Both the position numbers and the translations under genes were made by a program. Below the pieces are notes generated by a model that saw nothing but the letters and a program-made list of their open reading frames with translations, was not told where the DNA came from and searched no databases. Below are positions 2,413 to 37,563 of a DNA stretch of 37,563 bases, in pieces; positions within the stretch are counted from its first letter, which is position 1, and each line of letters opens with the position of its first letter. This stretch comes from Collodictyon triciliatum (lineage: Eukaryota): assembly GCA_043381765.1 (NCBI GenBank), contig JBHJMP010000953.1:1-37563 (forward strand), in the 5' to 3' direction.

Positions 2413-5400
2413 TTAAATGGATAATGTATCGGTGCTTTGCTGGTACCCATCTTGAGCTTTTTCTTCTTCGTTCGTTTTAGGCCCATATAATCGCTCTATG
2501 AGATGTCGATAAATCTGATTCAAATCAACCAAAGCGCACAAAAAATTAACAACAGAAACAACCTTATCTAAAGCCATTTTCAAAACAACAGGCCCTGCCT
2601 TTGAAAAGAAAAGAATAGCTATTCCTCCATTAAGCAAGATTACCAAAACCATCAATATCAATTCTTCTGTCGGATTTAAATTTCGGTATCGGAAGAGAAG
2701 GCTCAGCATTAAGGTAAAGTAGAGAACCATCAATGATTGAATTTGGGATTTTTTCAAAACATTAGATATGAATGGCTGGAAATATATTGTCGAAGCCATC
2801 ATAAGAAATATCAACCACAACCCGAAGTAAATCTGCAAGGAGGCAGAAAAGAATGCAGTAATCATGACTATGACTATCTTTTGCATCATCATAACAACTT
2901 CCCAGTACATACATTTTTCATTGTATCCATCAACCAAGAATCTTAAAAGAGAATACACTCTTGAAGTCGGGTCTTTCAATGAGCTCCTATTTCGAATTAT
3001 CACTGCTAATATAATCAAAGGTCCTCCAAAACAATATAAAAATAAAAAGAGTAAGGAAATGTTTTTCCAAGCTGAATATTTTGCACCATCACAAACTATA
3101 GACATGTCTGCCCTCAAATATTCAACATCACCTAGTGGTTCGCAGGAAAATATCTGAGATACGCCCGATGTAATTGAAGGATGCACAAAAAATAGAATGA
3201 CCAGCATGGAATACATGACCTCGTTTTGTATATTCTCTGGGGTAAATAACGTACTTGTGGCATTATTTTTGATAATTGCCCACAGTTTCTTAATAATAAT
3301 TATGAATATGACGACCCCGATCAAAAAAATTGGAGTTATCATCGAGTAGAGTACTTTTTCGTATGTGGTCATTTCGAATTGACATTCCATGGGATAGCTA
3401 TCCACCGAAAGAGAAAATGAAAACACTGCAGGAATTTTCATAACCGACACAATAGCTGAGTTCCAATTTACATCAAAGTTGGCCAAATATGACAAAACTT
3501 GGTAATGTGTGGAAAGAGACTTTAGAATTTGAATATTTCCTGTTTTTGTTTGCCGAGATTGCTCTATCATAAAGTAAACAAAAGTAAGCGGAAAAGCGAT
3601 GCTTAGAAAAACCAGAAAACCGTTTGAATCTTTTGATAAACATTTAAGACAAAAGTGGCCCGATTTTCCATATCCTTTTTGGCAAACACTACATAGGGCA
3701 CCAGTGTAGCCTTTAGCGCAAGTGTTATTTCCGCCATCACAGGCAATATGATTGGGACATTTATATGCTATATATTCTCCATCGGGACTCGGAGCTTTCC
3801 AGTATCCCGCAGCAACATTGAGTTGGTTATTTCCATAACATATGAATCCTATTGGACAGCTCTGGCACTGCTTTTTTAATGAGTCCATATAACCTTTGGG
3901 TGCACAGTTGCAGTGATCGATCGAAATTGCACCAGTTATATTTGTGTATGAAGTAGGAGGACATTCATTGCAAAAATTTTGTCCATAGTTTTCATTATAG
4001 GTGTTTGGCGAACAAGGATAACACTCATCTTGCTTGCGGTACCAACCAGGCTTACACTCACATGTAGAGTTTTCTATTAGTTCAAATCCATCCTTACATA
4101 TACAATCATCTGAACCCATCGAGCCATTATTCTTGGTTGTAAATTTGCTTGCACAAGGTAAACACAAATTTGTATCGCTTGTTGACTTGTACGAACCAAC
4201 TTTGCAAAAAACACACGATCCACTATATTCGTATTTACCAGGGGGGCAAGTGCAAGAACCAAAAATATTTTCATAGCTCTTAATACAACTACAATTATTA
4301 ATCGATATAGAACCTTCTCCTGATGTTGTTGAGCGTGTAGGGCATACATTACATATTGAACTCCTCTCCAGACTAAAGCTCCCGACCGGACAAATGTAGC
4401 AAGATGCTATATCAAATGAACCAGTTTTGTTATTGAAAGTTCCTGCTGGACATGGAGAACATGACGCTTGACCATCTTTGTCACTCCAAGTCCCTTTTGG
4501 GCATTCTGAGCATGACCAATTTCCAAATGAACCAAAATTAGAGTTGAAATGTCCTTTTGGGCAGGCATGACAAGAACGAGAATCTCTCTCAATGGTTGGT
4601 TCTTGATAATATCCAGGTGAGCACGAAGTACAAAAAGAGCTCCTTTCAGAAGAATATGTACCTTCAGAACATGGCATGCAAGACGAATTTCCAAATGAGC
4701 CTGTTTTATTATTGTATGTCCCCGCCGGACATGAGATACATGCGTTCCTGTAATTGTTTCCGTATGTTCCCTGGGGACACTTAGTACAATAAGTACTGCT
4801 GCTTGCACCAAATATTGGGTTCTGTGTTCCATCAGTACATTTCTTGCATTGGTAAAGTCCTTCTTCGTCACTGTATGTTCCTGGTTTGCACAACGCGCAT
4901 TCAATGGACCCCGTCTGATTCGAGAATGTTCCTTTTTCACACGGAACGCAATCGATTATATTTCGAGAAGGTGATTTTATGTTATATGTCCCAGCAGAAC
5001 ATACTTGACAGGTAGTGGATTTCGTGGAATTCGAAAAAGTACCAGGAGGACACGGATAACAGAATTTTGCTTGATAATCATTCATAAAAAATCCAGTTTC
5101 GCATAAAATGCAGCTTGATTGTCCTGATGAGGGATTATAAGTCCCAGGTTCACATGGAACACAGTATTGATGACTTTTTGCACCAAAATATGGGTTGAAG
5201 GTACCCGAATCACAAAGAGAGCAAATAGATTGACCTGATTCTGAATTGTAAGTTCCAGAGGGACATAAAAGACAAGAGATATTACTGGGAGACCCTTGAG
5301 AAGGATTGTATGTTCCTGGTGGGCATAAAGAGCATGACAAAGTGTCTCCGTGACTAAAAGTACCAGTTGGGCACATTCGACAAATTTTTATTTCTGTGTC

Positions 5401-6453
5401 ATAATAGAATCCGGCTGGACAAAGAGTCCAAAGTTTTAGTGTCCAATCTAAGCCTCCAGATATGATTTTAGAACCATCCGGGGTAGCTGTAACAGAGTTA
5501 ATACCAGAGGAGTGACCAGTAAGGGTTCGGAAAAGTAGTCCATCAAAGATATTCCATACTTTGACGGTACTATCACCGCTTCCAGAAATGATTTTAGAAC
5601 CATCAGGAGAAACAGAAACGCTGTAAACACCATTTGAATGTCCTATTAAGGTTAGTCGCAGTGATCCATCAGATATATTCCAAATTTTAATTGTTGAGTC
5701 AAGAGAGCCAGATACAATATTCATGTCATCGGGAGTCACCGCAACACATCTAATTGGCCAAATATGACCTACTATGGTTAGAACCAGGGTTCCGTCTGAG
5801 CGATTCCATACCCTTATTGTTTTGTCATTTCCTCCGGATATAATTTTTGAGTTATCACGGGTGATAGCGACACACCAAACGTAGCTATCATGTCCGGTCA
5901 ATGTGCGAATTAAAGACCCTGATAAAGAACTCCAAATTTTAATATTCGTATCCCAACCCCCTGATATAATCTGTGTATCATCATAAGAAAATGTGACACC
6001 ATAAGCAGCAGTGGTATGACCTGTCAGCGTGTTTAGTAGGGTTCCATCTGTTAAATTCCAAGTCTTTATGGTTCGGTCCCAATAGTCCCATCCGCCAGAG
6101 ACAATTATTGAATCGTCATGACTAATTGCAAGACTGTATATTTCCCGAGTATGTCCCAAGAGCGTTCGCATGACGGTGCCCGTATAAAAGTCCCAAATTT
6201 TGATAGTCTTGTCATTTCCACCAGAGACAATCCTTGAGCCGTCATTAGTAATAGAAACACAATAAATGGAATCGGTATGACCCTTGTATGTTAGCATCAG
6301 GTAATCTTGCCCTTTAGCATAGTGAATTTGAACATTGATTACTAACCCTAGACACGAATATTTGTTAGAAAATGTTTTTAAAAAATACATCAAATGAATA
6401 GTAATACCCAAGATTAGTATAGAAAAAACAAGTTTCCATGAACCGGATGTCAT
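2413..6453 (-). CDS. Secretory-pathway receptor-like protein: signal peptide + 7 WD40 repeats + Cys-rich (GCC2/GCC3, ephrin-receptor-like CxxGxY) stalk + ~9-TM C-terminal domain. Probable 60-nt intron at 6348-6407.
   Basis: 1346-aa ORF. Seven canonical GH...W(D/N) repeats lie at ~5422-6300. More than 25 CxxG(T/F)(Y/F)-type units lie at ~3640-5421, ending in CAKGYTGALCSVCQKGY. Hydrophobic helices with YWEVV and QPF motifs lie at ~2590-3620. The stop is TAA. Confidence 0.92.
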   Translation of the reverse strand: MTSGSWKLVFSILILGITIHLMYFLKTFSNKYSCLGLVINVQIHYAKGQDYLMLTYKGHTDSIYCVSITNDGSRIVSGGNDKTIKIWDFYTGTVMRTLLGHTREIYSLAISHDDSIIVSGGWDYWDRTIKTWNLTDGTLLNTLTGHTTAAYGVTFSYDDTQIISGGWDTNIKIWSSLSGSLIRTLTGHDSYVWCVAITRDNSKIISGGNDKTIRVWNRSDGTLVLTIVGHIWPIRCVAVTPDDMNIVSGSLDSTIKIWNISDGSLRLTLIGHSNGVYSVSVSPDGSKIISGSGDSTVKVWNIFDGLLFRTLTGHSSGINSVTATPDGSKIISGGLDWTLKLWTLCPAGFYYDTEIKICRMCPTGTFSHGDTLSCSLCPPGTYNPSQGSPSNISCLLCPSGTYNSESGQSICSLCDSGTFNPYFGAKSHQYCVPCEPGTYNPSSGQSSCILCETGFFMNDYQAKFCYPCPPGTFSNSTKSTTCQVCSAGTYNIKSPSRNIIDCVPCEKGTFSNQTGSIECALCKPGTYSDEEGLYQCKKCTDGTQNPIFGASSSTYCTKCPQGTYGNNYRNACISCPAGTYNNKTGSFGNSSCMPCSEGTYSSERSSFCTSCSPGYYQEPTIERDSRSCHACPKGHFNSNFGSFGNWSCSECPKGTWSDKDGQASCSPCPAGTFNNKTGSFDIASCYICPVGSFSLERSSICNVCPTRSTTSGEGSISINNCSCIKSYENIFGSCTCPPGKYEYSGSCVFCKVGSYKSTSDTNLCLPCASKFTTKNNGSMGSDDCICKDGFELIENSTCECKPGWYRKQDECYPCSPNTYNENYGQNFCNECPPTSYTNITGAISIDHCNCAPKGYMDSLKKQCQSCPIGFICYGNNQLNVAAGYWKAPSPDGEYIAYKCPNHIACDGGNNTCAKGYTGALCSVCQKGYGKSGHFCLKCLSKDSNGFLVFLSIAFPLTFVYFMIEQSRQTKTGNIQILKSLSTHYQVLSYLANFDVNWNSAIVSVMKIPAVFSFSLSVDSYPMECQFEMTTYEKVLYSMITPIFLIGVVIFIIIIKKLWAIIKNNATSTLFTPENIQNEVMYSMLVILFFVHPSITSGVSQIFSCEPLGDVEYLRADMSIVCDGAKYSAWKNISLLFLFLYCFGGPLIILAVIIRNRSSLKDPTSRVYSLLRFLVDGYNEKCMYWEVVMMMQKIVIVMITAFFSASLQIYFGLWLIFLMMASTIYFQPFISNVLKKSQIQSLMVLYFTLMLSLLFRYRNLNPTEELILMVLVILLNGGIAILFFSKAGPVVLKMALDKVVSVVNFLCALVDLNQIYRHLIERLYGPKTNEEEKAQDGYQQSTDTLSI
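6348..6407 (-). other. 60-nt in-frame GT-AG intron inside the signal peptide
   Basis: TTG G|GTATTACT...TTTTCTAACAAATATTCGTGTCTAG|GG TTA, with a CTAAC branch point. Splicing gives MTSGSWKLVFSILILGLVINVQIHYAKG/QD, a clean signal peptide. Confidence 0.7.
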
Positions 6454-8377
6454 CCTAGTTAGGCTGTTATTTTCTTGGAAATGTTAGAAAAAAGGTTCCT
6501 TGATTAACGATTCATTTAAAATAAAAGAACTATTTCATGTAATCTGTTCTTTTGATTTCAAAAATTATTGATGTCATATGAACCAAAAGGTAAGTAGTTT
6601 ATTTAATTTTTAATAAGATGTACTGGAGGTGTTGTAAGTCATTCTACTAGTTTATTTTAATCGAAAGACTATCAGGGGGTGTTTTCATGGAATGATGATT
6701 TTTCAGAATTGCCAAAAAAGTCATTCATACGATTATGAAAATGTAAAAAATTAGTAGGGAGGGAAAGTTGCGTGTTTAGGTTGCACAGAATTATTGATGA
6801 CAAATGATAAATGAGACGATTATTTGAAAAACGATCAGTGTAGGCACAAAAATACTGAATACACCAGATTGGATGAGCCCAATATTAAAAATACAGTAGC
6901 ATGAAGTCATGTTTTGTAAAAATGGCATTGAGTCTAATAAGTGGCAAAAAAAGAGAACTTTCAAAAGTTCATTAATATCAAAGTTATATAAATTTGTGAC
7001 GAAATATACTGAGATATGAGAAAATTATTAAATCAGATATTTGTACACATAAACTAGAAAGAACTTATATTCTCAACTTTTTTACCTTTATTCGATTCAA
7101 AGTTACATTTTAAGATCATTTAATTTGATGTTACTTTATTTTAATAGAATTTCATGAATATAGATGCAAAAAAGTTATGCGATAAAATTTTAAATACATC
7201 AGTAATGTTGTGGTATTATCATCTACATAAAATACAGATGACAATTACGCTAATGTTACTTTAATGAAATTTTATCATCGTTTCTAATGTAAAAGCAAAA
7301 AAATAATAATTAATTTAAATATATAAACATTTGAGTCCTTACAATAAAAGCAGTATCTATCAAAATTCTGTAAAACGGAGATGTATCATTTGTGTATATT
7401 TAATTTTGAAGAAAAAAAGATAAATTCATTTATTAGAAGGTCATGAATCTTATTCAAAGCTACTGAAATATGATGCATATCCCTCTAAAAATATTTATGG
7501 TAGGAAAAGAAACAATGCGTAAAAAATTGTCCGATATGTTCTGTTGAAAAGATTACATGAACCCTATTAGAGGAGGAATTAAAATCATAATAATTTTATC
7601 GATAAGATAAATTTACCTGCTATCCTTCCGTATTCCGATGCAAACCACATTCGAGAAAAATAGTATGATTTAAAAAAAAGCCTGCTATTATAAATGCCAT
7701 GAATTTAAGTCTTTACACTTATCATGTTTTTTTCTCATTTCTATTATATTATCTGATTATGACAGACAAACGCCTAGGCTCAATATGAAATTTCTACCAG
7801 TGTCTTTGATATCACCTTCTTGTATTGATTAAAAATAAAATTTCCTTTGCTTTCTTTTTATCCGTGAACTATAGATATAAAAATAAAAATTAAAAGTCCT
7901 CAGTATTATAGAAAAATTAATATCTGTAATGATGACCAATTAGGAGAATGAGAATAAGTGCTATAATATAAATGCTTCAAATCAAAGAATTTTTTGTTAA
8001 TTAAAAAAAGTATGTTCTTAATACTTCAATAATTTCAAAAATTCATATGTATCTTATCCGTTGCGAGTTTCATCTGATTTAATTGAAACATATTCTTTAA
8101 GGGTGAACATAATGTAACAAAAATATAGCTAGAAATAAAATACCATCCAAAATTAAAATTAAAATACTCCCACACTGTAAGAGCCTTTTGATAGTATATT
8201 TATCTGATGATAAGTTTTGAATTTTTTGTGGTGAAAGAAAAACGTTCATATACAAAAATCAATGATATAAAAAAAAAACTCACTACAATTACTAAGCTGG
8301 TGGACAATGCTCTCTTCGAGGTCACTCAGCGTGTTTACATCGTGCTGTTGCATTTGCTGCTTCCTTTTTCACCTGAA

Positions 8378-8750
8378 NNNNNNNNNNNNNNNNNNNNNNN
8401 NNNNNNNNNNNNNNNNNNNNNNNNNNNNNNNNNNNNNNNNNNNNNNNNNNNNNNNNNNNNNNNNNNNNNNNNNNNNNNNNNNNNNNNNNNNNNNNNNNNN
8501 NNNNNNNNNNNNNNNNNNNNNNNNNNNNNNNNNNNNNNNNNNNNNNNNNNNNNNNNNNNNNNNNNNNNNNNNNNNNNNNNNNNNNNNNNNNNNNNNNNNN
8601 NNNNNNNNNNNNNNNNNNNNNNNNNNNNNNNNNNNNNNNNNNNNNNNNNNNNNNNNNNNNNNNNNNNNNNNNNNNNNNNNNNNNNNNNNNNNNNNNNNNN
8701 NNNNNNNNNNNNNNNNNNNNNNNNNNNNNNNNNNNNNNNNNNNNNNNNNN
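8378..8750. other. Assembly gap (N run)
   Basis: Run of N. Confidence 1.
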
Positions 8751-9429
8751 GTAATTGCAAGAACCGAGGGAAATGCCCGCTTTCAAAGAGCAAGTGTCTT
8801 TCATTTTTTAGCCTTTGGCCGCCTTGTCACCAAGGACAACAAACTCACCTATGGGTTGGCATACCATAGTCAAAGGGTATTTGTGGAGCGAGCTAAATAT
8901 GGCATGAACGCTCTTGCTGATTTGCCCACAATTTTTTTTTTTATTCACGACAGACTTAGCTGTTGGCGCCCATGCCAACAATCTTTTTTTCAACCACCAA
9001 GCAGGTATTCCGAGGTAAAAAAGGGAAAAGTGATGGCGGATGTGCCATCAGAGGAGTATGGAGATGGGGAAAAGATAAAGGAAGAAAAGATGATGAAGAG
9101 GAATAGGAAAGGAAGTAATGACCCTGGGGCTTGATAAGAGGCCTTTTCTCTGGATTGTTAACAATATTAGCAAAGATATTGTAACTGTTAAATTTGTCTT
9201 GCGCACATTCACCCATCCATAATATACTAGCACACTTCGTTCTTTTGCATACGTTCAATATTTTATTTTGAGTAGGATTAATCGTCAAGCACCAGTCCTC
9301 TGGCACGCATACTTGTATTGAGCAGGACGTCTGTTTACCTTGTTTTCAGCCTCATATGATTGATTCGACATGATGATGAAATTTATTTACCACTCCTGCT
9401 ACGTTATCCATTTAATCGTGTTTTTAAGT

Positions 9430-13289: not shown

Positions 13290-14811
13290 AAGAAAGAAAC
13301 TCATGTAAGTTCATATGAAAAAAAAAACCTTAGTGGTTGCATTTGGTATTGGGATGAGGTCTCCAGGTATTGCGGCTTCCTGTAATTTTTAAAATAATTA
13401 TAAGTAGATTTATTCAATGACTAACATGTACCCATTAAGTAAATAAATGCAGCCGTTAAAAGAAAACCTGGGTGTCTCGTATGTGGTTAAGCACTTCTTG
13501 CGTGACTTGATCCAGTTCGTGCAAAAAATTTGTATCCTGAAGTCGGTTCTGTTGGTAAAGTAATAAAAAATAAAAAAAAAAGTGACAATTTGAATATGAA
13601 AGACACGATGCTATTATCTTCTTGGTTTCGCCATACTGACGCATTATTTGTTGTAAATTATCAGTGCATACTCACGGGTTTTGTTGCCATGCTTTGTTTT
13701 GGTGCGCGACCTTTCATCATTTCGTCGATAATCTCTTGCACTGGCAAAGGCGAGTCTGGCCTATAATATTTATCAGATGGTTCAATTGTTATCACACAAA
13801 AGTTGAGTTTGTGACATAATCTTCGCCTTTGGAAGTATTTACGTGAGTGTAAAAAGAGGAGCATCCCATCTATTTCTAGGGTTTGGAGTCTCGAAACGAC
13901 CAATCAAATCCTCCATTCTGCGGTTTGGTTGTGGGTAGTTTAGAATTGAGCGCAATGTCAAAGTCGCATCCCCTTACACATGTATTATCATTTTATCGTT
14001 TTCAATAATTGATTGCATGATAGATCTATGGCGTACATATGAGGAGGGTAAGAGACGCTAAAATCGCGAGCTGAATTCCATAACTTAGTTGTTTCTGGCG
14101 AGGTATCACAATAAACCTGCGAGATATATAATGGAGTGGACGTCTGATAAAAGTGCGCAGGATAACCATTATTTTTCTGATAGTTATGGTCTGCGGATAA
14201 AAGAACAAGCATAGAAACATACAAGCTTAGCAGTGAGATTTTATTTTCAGCCATCCAAACAGATGATATATATAAAAGCGAACCATGCAATATGGAACAC
14301 CAGCTGTGCGAGCGCGGCAATATAGTTCATATCTATACCCCTTAATAAAGTTGACTGAATCCAGAAGCACAATATTGTCTTTTGAAAGCTGTCTCTCGCT
14401 AGCTGCCTTCAGCTTGTCTCTTGTATTCTTCTCGGAAGGACCGTCTAAATAATCACAATAATAATCACAATAATAATCACAATAATAATCACAATAATAA
14501 TCACAATAATAATCACAATAATAATCACAATAATAATCACAATAATAATCACAATAATCATAATCATAATAATTCAGGAAGATGTTCGTAAAGTGGCTAA
14601 AGGTGTTTGTCTTTTCAGACCGAGTTGTGAGGCATATATAAGAACTCCGGTTAGTCTTTGTCGCACCTTGATAAGCCGTGGATCGGGAGACCGACTCGGA
14701 CTCTTCGTTGACAATCACCACCCGCTTCTCAGTTTGCTCTTGCAGGGCAGACTGCAGTTCCTTGGCCCGTTTTGACTTGCCGCTGCTCGGGAGACCGCAG
14801 AACACAATCAT
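12860..14811 (-). CDS. KTI12: KTI12 (Elongator-associated P-loop, PSTK-like). Nine exons: 14811-14667, 14444-14284, 14116-14037, 13917-13843, 13760-13676, 13548-13468, 13379-13329, 13111-13040, 12934-12860.
   Basis: The spliced protein has MIVFCGLPSSGKS (P-loop), IVLLDSVNFIKGYRYELYC, RFETPNPRNRWDAPLF, TNFLHELDQVTQ, EFRRLKLSF and MFIQYLN*, all KTI12 hallmarks. All joins are GT-AG and phase-consistent. Confidence 0.93.
13186..13286. repeat. Poly-A tracts within a KTI12 intron
   Basis: Three long A runs separated by short AT spacers. Confidence 0.95.
14447..14572. repeat. 12-bp minisatellite (AATAATCACAAT)n in KTI12 intron 1; reads (CDYY)n on the minus strand
   Basis: About 9 perfect units plus degenerate AATCAT units. 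Confidence 0.97.
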
Positions 14812-14858
14812 CCTTGGATGGTTTGTTCTTTGCCAGTTGAATTTGCCGGTGTGTAAGT

Positions 14859-14946
14859 GAAGAAGAAAGAAGAAAGAAGAAAGAAGAAAGAAGAAAGAAG
14901 AAAGAAGAAAGAAGAAAGAAGAAAGAAGAAAGAAGAAAGAAGAAAG
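14859..14946. repeat. (AAGAAAG)n 7-bp pure-purine repeat just upstream of KTI12
   Basis: About 12 tandem units. Confidence 0.96.
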
Positions 14947-15139
14947 AGTGGCAGTGAACGGGCAACAACATTTAGATTGTTGGAATGAATAAAGAATCTT
15001 GCGCAAAATAAAATAGCACAGCACCGCAACCACACAATTATATCGCAGTAGTATCAGTGACACGTTTCTTTCCCTTTTGTTTTATTCAACTACCCCTTCG
15101 AAAACGGGAGGTCAGCGCCTGCTGAGGCGGTGCTGAGCA

Positions 15140-15242
15140 GAAAAGAAAAAGAAAAAGAAAAAGAAAAAGAAAAAGAAAAAGAAAAAGAAAAAGAAAAAGA
15201 AAAAGAAAAAGAAAAAGAAAAAGAAAAAGAAAAAGAAAAAAG
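15140..15242. repeat. (GAAAAA)n hexamer repeat
   Basis: About 16 tandem units; source of the spurious KEKE/FSFS ORFs. Confidence 0.97.
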
Positions 15243-15297: not shown

Positions 15298-20742
<5,445 letters not shown>

Positions 20743-21717: not shown

Positions 21718-37442
<15,725 letters not shown>

Positions 37443-37480
37443 GTATGTATCCCTGTGTTTCTTATTTTTCTAAAACACTT

Positions 37481-37550
37481 NNNNNNNNNNNNNNNNNNNN
37501 NNNNNNNNNNNNNNNNNNNNNNNNNNNNNNNNNNNNNNNNNNNNNNNNNN
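37481..37550. other. Assembly gap followed by (TG)n at the window end
   Basis: Run of N, then TG repeat. Confidence 0.95.
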
Positions 37551-37563
37551 TTGTGTGTGTGTG

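Follow-up and report, generated by a model that had tools for sequence, protein, structure and literature searches.

Introduction

WD40 propellers are textbook scaffolds of the cytosol and the nucleus, and we know of no characterised eukaryotic protein that carries a sequence-canonical GH-WD propeller outside. The question whether such a propeller can stand on the outer side of a membrane is raised by a gene of Collodictyon triciliatum, located at positions 2413..6453 on the minus strand of contig JBHJMP010000953.1 (GenBank assembly GCA_043381765.1). Positions 1 to 37,563 of this contig form the window, i.e. the whole stretch of 37,563 nucleotides (nt) analysed here. The gene encodes a protein of 1346 amino acids, termed P0001. 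The best explanation as a whole, to which we give a probability of about 0.65, is that P0001 belongs to a family of multi-pass membrane proteins and consists of an N-terminal leader, an outward-facing WD40 head, a Cys-rich stalk, a DUF7630 module and nine transmembrane helices, with a head that binds a ligand and possibly takes part in signalling.

Domain architecture of P0001

The gene and its parts are arranged as follows, from the N- to the C-terminus of the protein.

2413..6453, minus strand: complete single-exon coding sequence, 1346 amino acids plus stop (open reading frame; in-frame stop 10 codons upstream of the ATG)
6361..6453, minus strand: N-terminal hydrophobic leader (signal peptide or signal anchor), residues 1-31 (hydropathy; AlphaFold2 helix over residues 5-31)
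6310..6360, minus strand: linker, predicted to be disordered, residues 32-48 (AlphaFold2; predicted local distance difference test, pLDDT, below 50)
5419..6309, minus strand: predicted closed seven-blade canonical WD40 propeller, residues 49-345 (Pfam, AlphaFold2, Foldseek, repeat identity)
3763..5418, minus strand: Cys-rich stalk of Ephrin_rec_like/TNFR-like repeats, residues 346-897, beginning right after the last WD40 strand (Pfam, Cys counts)
3640..3762, minus strand: juxtamembrane Cys-rich DUF7630 module, residues 898-938 (PF24633; found in relatives too)
2599..3633, minus strand: putative nine-helix membrane domain related to PF06011 (Flc/Pkd2 'TRP-like'), residues 941-1285 (AlphaFold2, relatives, Lys/Arg counts)
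3091..3144, minus strand: loop between transmembrane helices 4 and 5 with the invariant C1104 and C1121, residues 1104-1121 (alignment A1; beta-hairpin in the model)
2416..2598, minus strand: predicted cytoplasmic tail, residues 1286-1346 (seven Lys/Arg, no segment of transmembrane grade, low pLDDT at the end)

The reading frame is single and unbroken and its coordinates are exact; the region 5' of the ATG is rich in stops in the same frame. As far as can be judged from the DNA, both the gene, which is intronless and comes from a flagellate of the CRuMs type related to Diphylleia, and its architecture appear to be real. The leader reaches Kyte-Doolittle values of 2.0-2.9 over residues 7-25 and has its hydrophobic core at residues 8-25.

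A Pfam scan of the whole protein, of which the best 25 of 40 matched families were inspected, recognised PF00400 (WD40) in seven stretches (E = 1.1e-66, 218.9 bits at a cut-off of 27). The GH...W units begin at residues 54, 96, 141, 183, 225, 267 and 309; five of them are 42 residues long, one has 45, and the last, which ends at the junction with the stalk, has 37. With a mean pairwise identity of 47 % the seven units are unusually regular. In an AlphaFold2 model of residues 1-470, built from 27 aligned sequences, 28 strands were found within residues 53-343, with blocks of residues 51-340 at a pLDDT of 86-99. Strand 1 of the propeller is supplied by the segment before the first GH and the final strand stops two residues short of the first Cys repeat, while the first Cys repeats themselves have a pLDDT below 50 in this model. 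The head is predicted to fold as a complete and closed propeller of seven four-stranded blades. Its Foldseek neighbours are the symmetric designer propellers 7big (root-mean-square deviation 0.7 Å, 43 % identity, target TM-score 0.97) and 7bie and the 'highly repetitive propeller' 2ymu (0.8 Å, 44 % identity); WDR5 ranks after these with 32 % identity and about 1.6 Å.

The propeller has only three Cys (C65, C195 and C237), all at one strand-A position and spread over three of the seven blades. The residue following the first hydrophobic position of strand A is, from blade 1 to blade 7, Y, Y, Y, W, R, Y and N, and in blades 2 and 3 the conserved Asp is also preceded by a Trp. Because these are the positions which we take to face the top-face pocket of WDR5-type propellers, a ring of aromatic residues on the top face of the modelled head may reasonably be considered a candidate binding site.

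The stalk is made of PF07699 (Ephrin_rec_like) repeats, matched in 12 stretches (E = 2.1e-66), besides a TNFR_ELAPOR1-type module. Residues 346-940 (about 595 amino acids) hold 68 Cys and 21 C..G.[YFW] motifs, the count of which is zero in the WD40 and the membrane part. A separate scan of the C-terminal 455 amino acids placed PF24633 (DUF7630) at about residues 898-938 (E = 1.1e-7, 32.3 bits at a cut-off of 27). The last WD40 strand passes straight into the first Cys repeat, which leaves the stalk without a separate leader.

Membrane domain and topology

An AlphaFold2 model of residues 892-1346, built with 34 short relatives, has a pLDDT of 88.9 and consists of a small beta-hairpin module, corresponding to DUF7630, and a helical bundle. 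Together with the hydropathy profile the bundle points to about nine transmembrane helices followed by a C-terminal tail. No hydrophobic segment of transmembrane grade was found by the hydropathy scan between the leader and residue 945; the sole window above the threshold before this residue (residues 221-239, Kyte-Doolittle 1.57) is a pair of beta-strands within the propeller. If the head is placed outside and nine helices are assumed, the short loops carry 12 Lys/Arg residues inside versus 4 outside, or 11 versus 5 under an alternative choice of helix 2, and the tail adds the seven mentioned above. In alignment A1, which comprises P0001 and 34 of 150 membrane-domain matches picked for shortness, C1104 and C1121 (columns C213 and C230) are the only two residues that are invariant among all 35 sequences, and by helix parity their loop shares its side with the Cys-rich stalk. 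Nearly invariant are the columns P150, P201, G252, W293, K301 and P336.

The WD40 head and the stalk are contiguous and lie on the same side of the membrane. From the leader, the distribution of Lys/Arg and the invariant Cys pair this side is most likely the extracytoplasmic one, an assignment that is well supported but indirect. Cleavage of the leader would be the simpler reading, because in the model the two ends of the propeller meet in one blade and the linker has only about 17 residues, so that an uncleaved leader would pin the head to the membrane despite a stalk of about 590 residues. A hydrophobic N-terminal segment was counted in 47 of 111 long family members versus 31 of 116 WD40 control proteins, but with a threshold too loose to discriminate and with many members being transcript fragments, and the comparison is not used as evidence.

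Most of this layout had already been proposed in an initial annotation made from the DNA letters alone. Exactly seven regular GH-WD repeats, a stalk of the CxxGxY type of about 590 residues, some nine transmembrane helices and the location of propeller and stalk on one side, with no membrane segment between them, are all borne out, and the suggested check by AlphaFold and Foldseek returned a canonical seven-blade propeller. A signal peptide had been claimed as well; here the hydrophobic N-terminal helix stands, while its cleavage is not part of the confirmation.

A protist family with exchangeable heads

The membrane domain (residues 892-1346) was compared in a full phmmer scan with 1.84 billion cluster representatives. 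The scan yielded 7041 representatives at E ≤ 1e-3, 1746 at E ≤ 1e-10 and 52 at E ≤ 1e-30. In the best 150 of the 7041, whose sizes range from fragments of 273 to proteins of 6588 amino acids, the match lies towards the C-terminal end. The top match is a metagenome fragment of 293 amino acids with 48 % identity, and the following ones show 32-35 %. Names were looked up for 20 of the 150 listed matches: eight belong to Rigifila ramosa, four to Mantamonas plastica, one to Clastostelium and one is a fragment named 'hypothetical protein', which makes 14 named matches, and the other six are metagenome or Logan records. A more distant family member from the green alga Caulerpa was obtained in a separate search.

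The domains in front of the membrane part were surveyed with Pfam in 33 long members, namely the 29 best-scoring of the 150 matches under about 2200 amino acids and four from a separate search with six matches. Ephrin_rec_like is the most common domain (18 of 33), followed by TIG (14) and RCC1 (8). PQQ_2 and LRR occur in three members each, FG-GAP, Beta_helix, NCD3G and Chlam_PMP in two each, and Kelch and an EMC1-type propeller in one each. DUF7630 was recognised in four and PF06011 in two of these 33. When the parts of P0001 were used as phmmer queries, a similar stalk was detected in 32 of the 156 members examined and WD40 repeats in none of them (0/156).

The closest named relatives are P0130 and P0131 of Rigifila ramosa and P0132 and P0133 of Mantamonas plastica. 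Like P0001 they possess the membrane domain (32-35 % identity, E = 1e-53 to 1e-58), DUF7630 and an Ephrin_rec_like stalk in identical domain order. The heads of the family to which they belong are TIG, RCC1, PQQ, FG-GAP, Kelch, LRR or beta-helix domains, whereas that of P0001 is WD40. RCC1 and Kelch propellers are usually cytosolic. The order of head, Cys-rich stalk, DUF7630 and nine helices is thus a common modular architecture of protists, with propellers of several kinds already in use as heads, and P0001, with its nine-helix domain, Cys pair, DUF7630 and Ephrin_rec_like repeats, is one of its members. The novelty sits in the WD40 head and not in the chassis of stalk and membrane domain. 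The initial annotation had regarded the whole receptor architecture as novel; this has to be given up for the chassis, which is that of a huge head-swapping family, but it can be kept for the unusual head.

Relation to the Flc/Pkd2 family

The family PF06011 ('TRP') takes in the fungal Flc proteins and Pkd2 of fission yeast. It was matched by 12 of the 35 sequences of alignment A1 with a best E of 2.6e-14, and DUF7630 by 6 of the 35. Each relative that matches PF06011 also matches P0001 at E ≤ 3e-24. The membrane domain of P0001 appears to be related to PF06011 by a transitive link, via relatives matching both, and is not filed here as a member.

For Pkd2 of fission yeast, sequence analysis and AlphaFold predicted a signal peptide of 23 amino acids, an extracellular Ig-like domain of 147 amino acids and a domain of 405 amino acids with nine helices, followed by a cytoplasmic tail, all without a determined structure; the authors suggest that gating of the channel may be a task of the outer domain (bioRxiv 10.1101/2022.08.11.503631). 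In addition, the Ca2+ permeability of Pkd2 is reported to be activated by membrane stretching (PMC9727806). Fungal PF06011 proteins are reported both at the endoplasmic reticulum (ER) and at the plasma membrane (PMC11333956; bioRxiv 10.1101/2022.09.20.508804). Pkd2/Flc and P0001 are predicted to be alike in an N-terminal signal or leader, an extracytoplasmic N-domain, a nine-helix domain of about 400 amino acids and a cytoplasmic tail. They differ in the outer part: the fungal head is an Ig/ML-like domain of 147 amino acids, whereas P0001 has a WD40 propeller, a Cys-rich stalk of about 590 amino acids and DUF7630.

Kinship and origin of the WD40 head

Within a size range of 740-2356 amino acids, the WD40 region is matched best by bacterial and fungal multi-repeat proteins with NACHT, AAA, TIR or kinase domains and by NB-ARC proteins of Reticulomyxa and proteins of Stentor. 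Local identity is highest with cyanobacterial proteins (44-48 %) and lies at 29-40 % for Stentor, Reticulomyxa and fungi. The repeats are supported as being of the highly regular kind that occurs in cyanobacterial and fungal WD40 proteins with a kinase, a TIR domain or the core of the signal transduction ATPases with numerous domains (STAND); 2ymu and 7big as the closest structures point the same way, and on this the initial annotation, which had recognised the repeat type of STAND sensors, was right. HET-E/NWD proteins presumably have the same highly repetitive type of propeller.

The initial annotation had gone further and derived the head from a grafted sensor module of a NOD-like receptor (NLR). 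Kinship of repeats does not demonstrate such a descent. It is not demonstrated because the protein has no room for an NTPase, with only 48 residues in front of the propeller, and because repeats of this type are found behind N-terminal domains of many unrelated kinds. Neither a STAND NTPase (NACHT, NB-ARC, AAA_16) nor a kinase family was seen among the best 25 of the 40 Pfam families matched by P0001, and no kinase in the scan of residues 892-1346. While the named cyanobacterial and fungal matches bear NACHT, AAA, TIR or kinase domains, P0001 shows none of these in the scans and combines its propeller with a leader, stalk and membrane domain instead.

Horizontal gene transfer (HGT) of the head from cyanobacteria is not adopted: the slightly higher cyanobacterial identities would speak for it, but identities among consensus-like repeats are an unreliable guide and the codon usage of the head shows no foreign signal (see below).

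The closest described analogue of the outer part is CRINKLY4, known from ectodomain structures of plant ACR4 and PpCR4, as Pkd2/Flc is for the membrane part. The structure paper describes an N-terminal seven-bladed propeller, which its authors call WD40, with a TNFR-like Cys-rich domain directly behind it, and this order is the same in P0001. However, the CRINKLY4 propeller has a disulfide in each blade and an N-terminus buried in the core, whereas that of P0001 is of the canonical GH-WD type without disulfides. CRINKLY4 is furthermore a single-pass protein with a cytoplasmic kinase, in contrast to the multi-pass P0001 with nine helices, in which no kinase was found.

A different kind of WD40-plus-channel fusion was noticed among the WD40-search matches. 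P0031, P0062 and P0103 (about 2000 amino acids) have four to five strongly hydrophobic segments at the C-terminus; PF00520 (Ion_trans) is listed for P0062 and for P0038, the latter not being among the matches flagged as hydrophobic. In proteins of the P0062 type the WD40 part is presumably cytosolic.

Proposed mechanism and alternative explanations

In the preferred explanation the leader would direct P0001, a multi-pass membrane glycoprotein, to the ER. Propeller, stalk and DUF7630 would end up outside the cytosol, either on the cell surface or within a lumen, and the nine helices would terminate in a cytoplasmic tail. The top face of the propeller with its aromatic ring may act as a ligand-binding site, held at a distance from the membrane by the disulfide-rich stalk. 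The membrane domain may turn binding to the head, or pulling on it, into an ion (Ca2+) signal, because it shares homology with family members in which the fungal Flc/Pkd2 TRP-like family is recognised; alternatively, it may serve only as an anchor of the head. The head itself would most likely have been gained through domain shuffling, in a family whose heads are freely exchanged. A role in the recognition of prey, pathogen or self is speculation.

The alternative that survives best, though we consider it unlikely, is a passive adhesin or cell-coat protein whose WD40 head has its ligand on a surface, on prey or in the matrix and whose nine-helix domain is only an anchor. Typical adhesin modules (TIG, beta-helix, Chlam_PMP, LRR, FG-GAP) are found among the heads of the family, P0001 itself misses PF06011, and no solved channel resembles the model of the membrane domain. 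However, a conserved nine-helix domain of about 400 amino acids far exceeds what an anchor needs, with its two invariant Cys and six nearly invariant positions and with 1746 relatives at E ≤ 1e-10, some of which match the Flc/Pkd2 family.

Residence inside the cell in the ER, Golgi, vacuole or phagosome, as for some Flc/Pkd2 relatives, would make the WD40 head face a lumen, but it is improbable. The reported ER location of fungal PF06011 proteins, mentioned above, would fit it, and no sequence feature fixes the final compartment. Long Ephrin_rec_like stalks and adhesin-type heads throughout the family suggest display at the surface instead.

The artefact explanation concerns the junction near 5419, at which the propeller would have been joined to the stalk by a chimeric assembly or the WD40 part would be missing from the mature mRNA. 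The frame of 4041 nt stays open through this junction. GC content at third codon positions (GC3) is 0.32 in the WD40 part, 0.29 in the stalk and 0.37 in the membrane part, and relative codon usage of the three parts correlates pairwise with r = 0.56-0.59; the WD40 part carries no foreign mark in either measure. A second copy of the WD40, stalk or membrane part was not found by tblastn in the window. Although the junction was not seen in a second genome or transcriptome in the searches made here, and introns are suggested elsewhere in the window (the dynein gene described below shifts its frame near 37050, with only short open reading frames upstream), such an artefact is very improbable, given the open frame, the uniform composition of all three parts, a leader-less stalk that needs a leader located upstream of the WD40 part, and a propeller that is complete with exactly 28 strands and stops at the junction.

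Several points weigh against the preferred explanation as a whole. No WD40-headed relative was found, neither among the 156 family members nor in a second assembly with this junction, and therefore the junction rests on this one assembly. A stalk or a membrane domain was present in 0 of the 120 listed matches of the WD40 region, a search which is dominated by many-repeat proteins and in which proteins with seven repeats only would rank below those listed. A metagenome scan for the WD40-stalk architecture gave two loci with the same match, and the one inspected is a G-beta gene. Atlas searches for the same architecture returned Ephrin_rec_like clusters (0.81) or WD40-only ones (0.86), below the level of evidence. 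The hydrophobic core of the leader spans about 18 residues, a considerable length for a signal peptide that is cleaved. We see no adaptation of the propeller to an oxidising compartment: its few Cys provide no disulfide per blade. Its three N-x-S/T sequons, at N133, N217 and N259, are close to chance expectation by a rough estimate of our own.

Other points of this kind concern the membrane domain. Residues 892-1346 gave no match to PF06011 at E ≤ 1, and the homology through which the domain may be proposed as a channel is a distant one. Foldseek with the model found no solved relative in the PDB at E ≤ 1e-3, and the best hit of a wide VIA search was Hrd1 with Z = 8.1, a value that helical proteins can reach by chance. 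When PDB sequences were searched with a profile, nothing came out below E = 0.01 either. This failure to match solved folds is no evidence for a new fold of the membrane domain.

Significance

In a limited literature collection, extracellular WD40 was mentioned in two papers only, the one on the CRINKLY4 structure and a cyanobacterial review, and secreted, ectodomain or luminal WD40 in none. If P0001 is made as predicted, a disulfide-free WD40 propeller can fold and work in the secretory pathway. Furthermore, P0001 points to a protist family of great size, with 7041 representative clusters, in which exchangeable binding heads would be joined to a Flc/Pkd2-like domain; this family is a candidate system for sensing or adhesion in phagotrophic protists. 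High novelty can be claimed only with reserve, since head-swapping is already a habit of the family and the example is a single one. A bolder version would have a predatory CRuMs flagellate redeploy a hypervariable WD40 sensor of the STAND/NLR type to the outside, on a rigid disulfide stalk above a Pkd2-like, stretch- or Ca2+-permeable membrane domain, where binding of prey or microbes to the aromatic face pulls the stalk and gates an ion signal, and it would make P0001 the first eukaryotic sequence-canonical WD40 ectodomain; we regard it as doubtful, less probable than the passive adhesin though more so than an internal compartment.

Other genes and repeats in the window

At 32012-37562 on the plus strand the window contains a fragment of an axonemal dynein heavy chain (AAA2 to AAA5 plus stalk) as one exon of 1682 amino acids. 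It is 87 % identical to a transcript of Diphylleia rotans; the next-scoring sequence has 50 % identity over 59 % of the query, and full-length ones come after it with at most 60 %. This affinity fits the nearest relatives of the membrane domain, which also come from CRuMs. The frame shift near 37050 suggests an intron. GC3 of the dynein fragment is 0.53, well above the 0.29-0.37 of the receptor gene, and the codon usage of the two genes is uncorrelated (r = 0.04-0.23).

The region 7001-9000, just upstream of the receptor gene, is very AT-rich (GC 0.22-0.25) and has open reading frames that overlap on both strands, with no match to Pfam. An open reading frame of 984 amino acids at 15980-18934 on the minus strand encodes a coiled-coil protein. 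Its N-terminal third is a tandem array of nearly identical units, with periods of 72, 105 and 177 bp in the DNA at 18021-18797 and matches of 83-94 %. Its sole Pfam match is a weak one to AvrM_N that passes no domain threshold.

A homologue of KTI12 is also present in the window, as a KTI12-like open reading frame at 14227-15063. Perfect or near-perfect microsatellites and short tandem arrays were found at 1-94, 14448-14573, 14860-14947, 15141-15240, 20469-20651, 29779-29894 and 30246-30344. Their units are AAT, ATA, AAGAAGA, AAAAGA, TCCTT and 12-mers, and some of them lie within or beside the KTI12-like frame.

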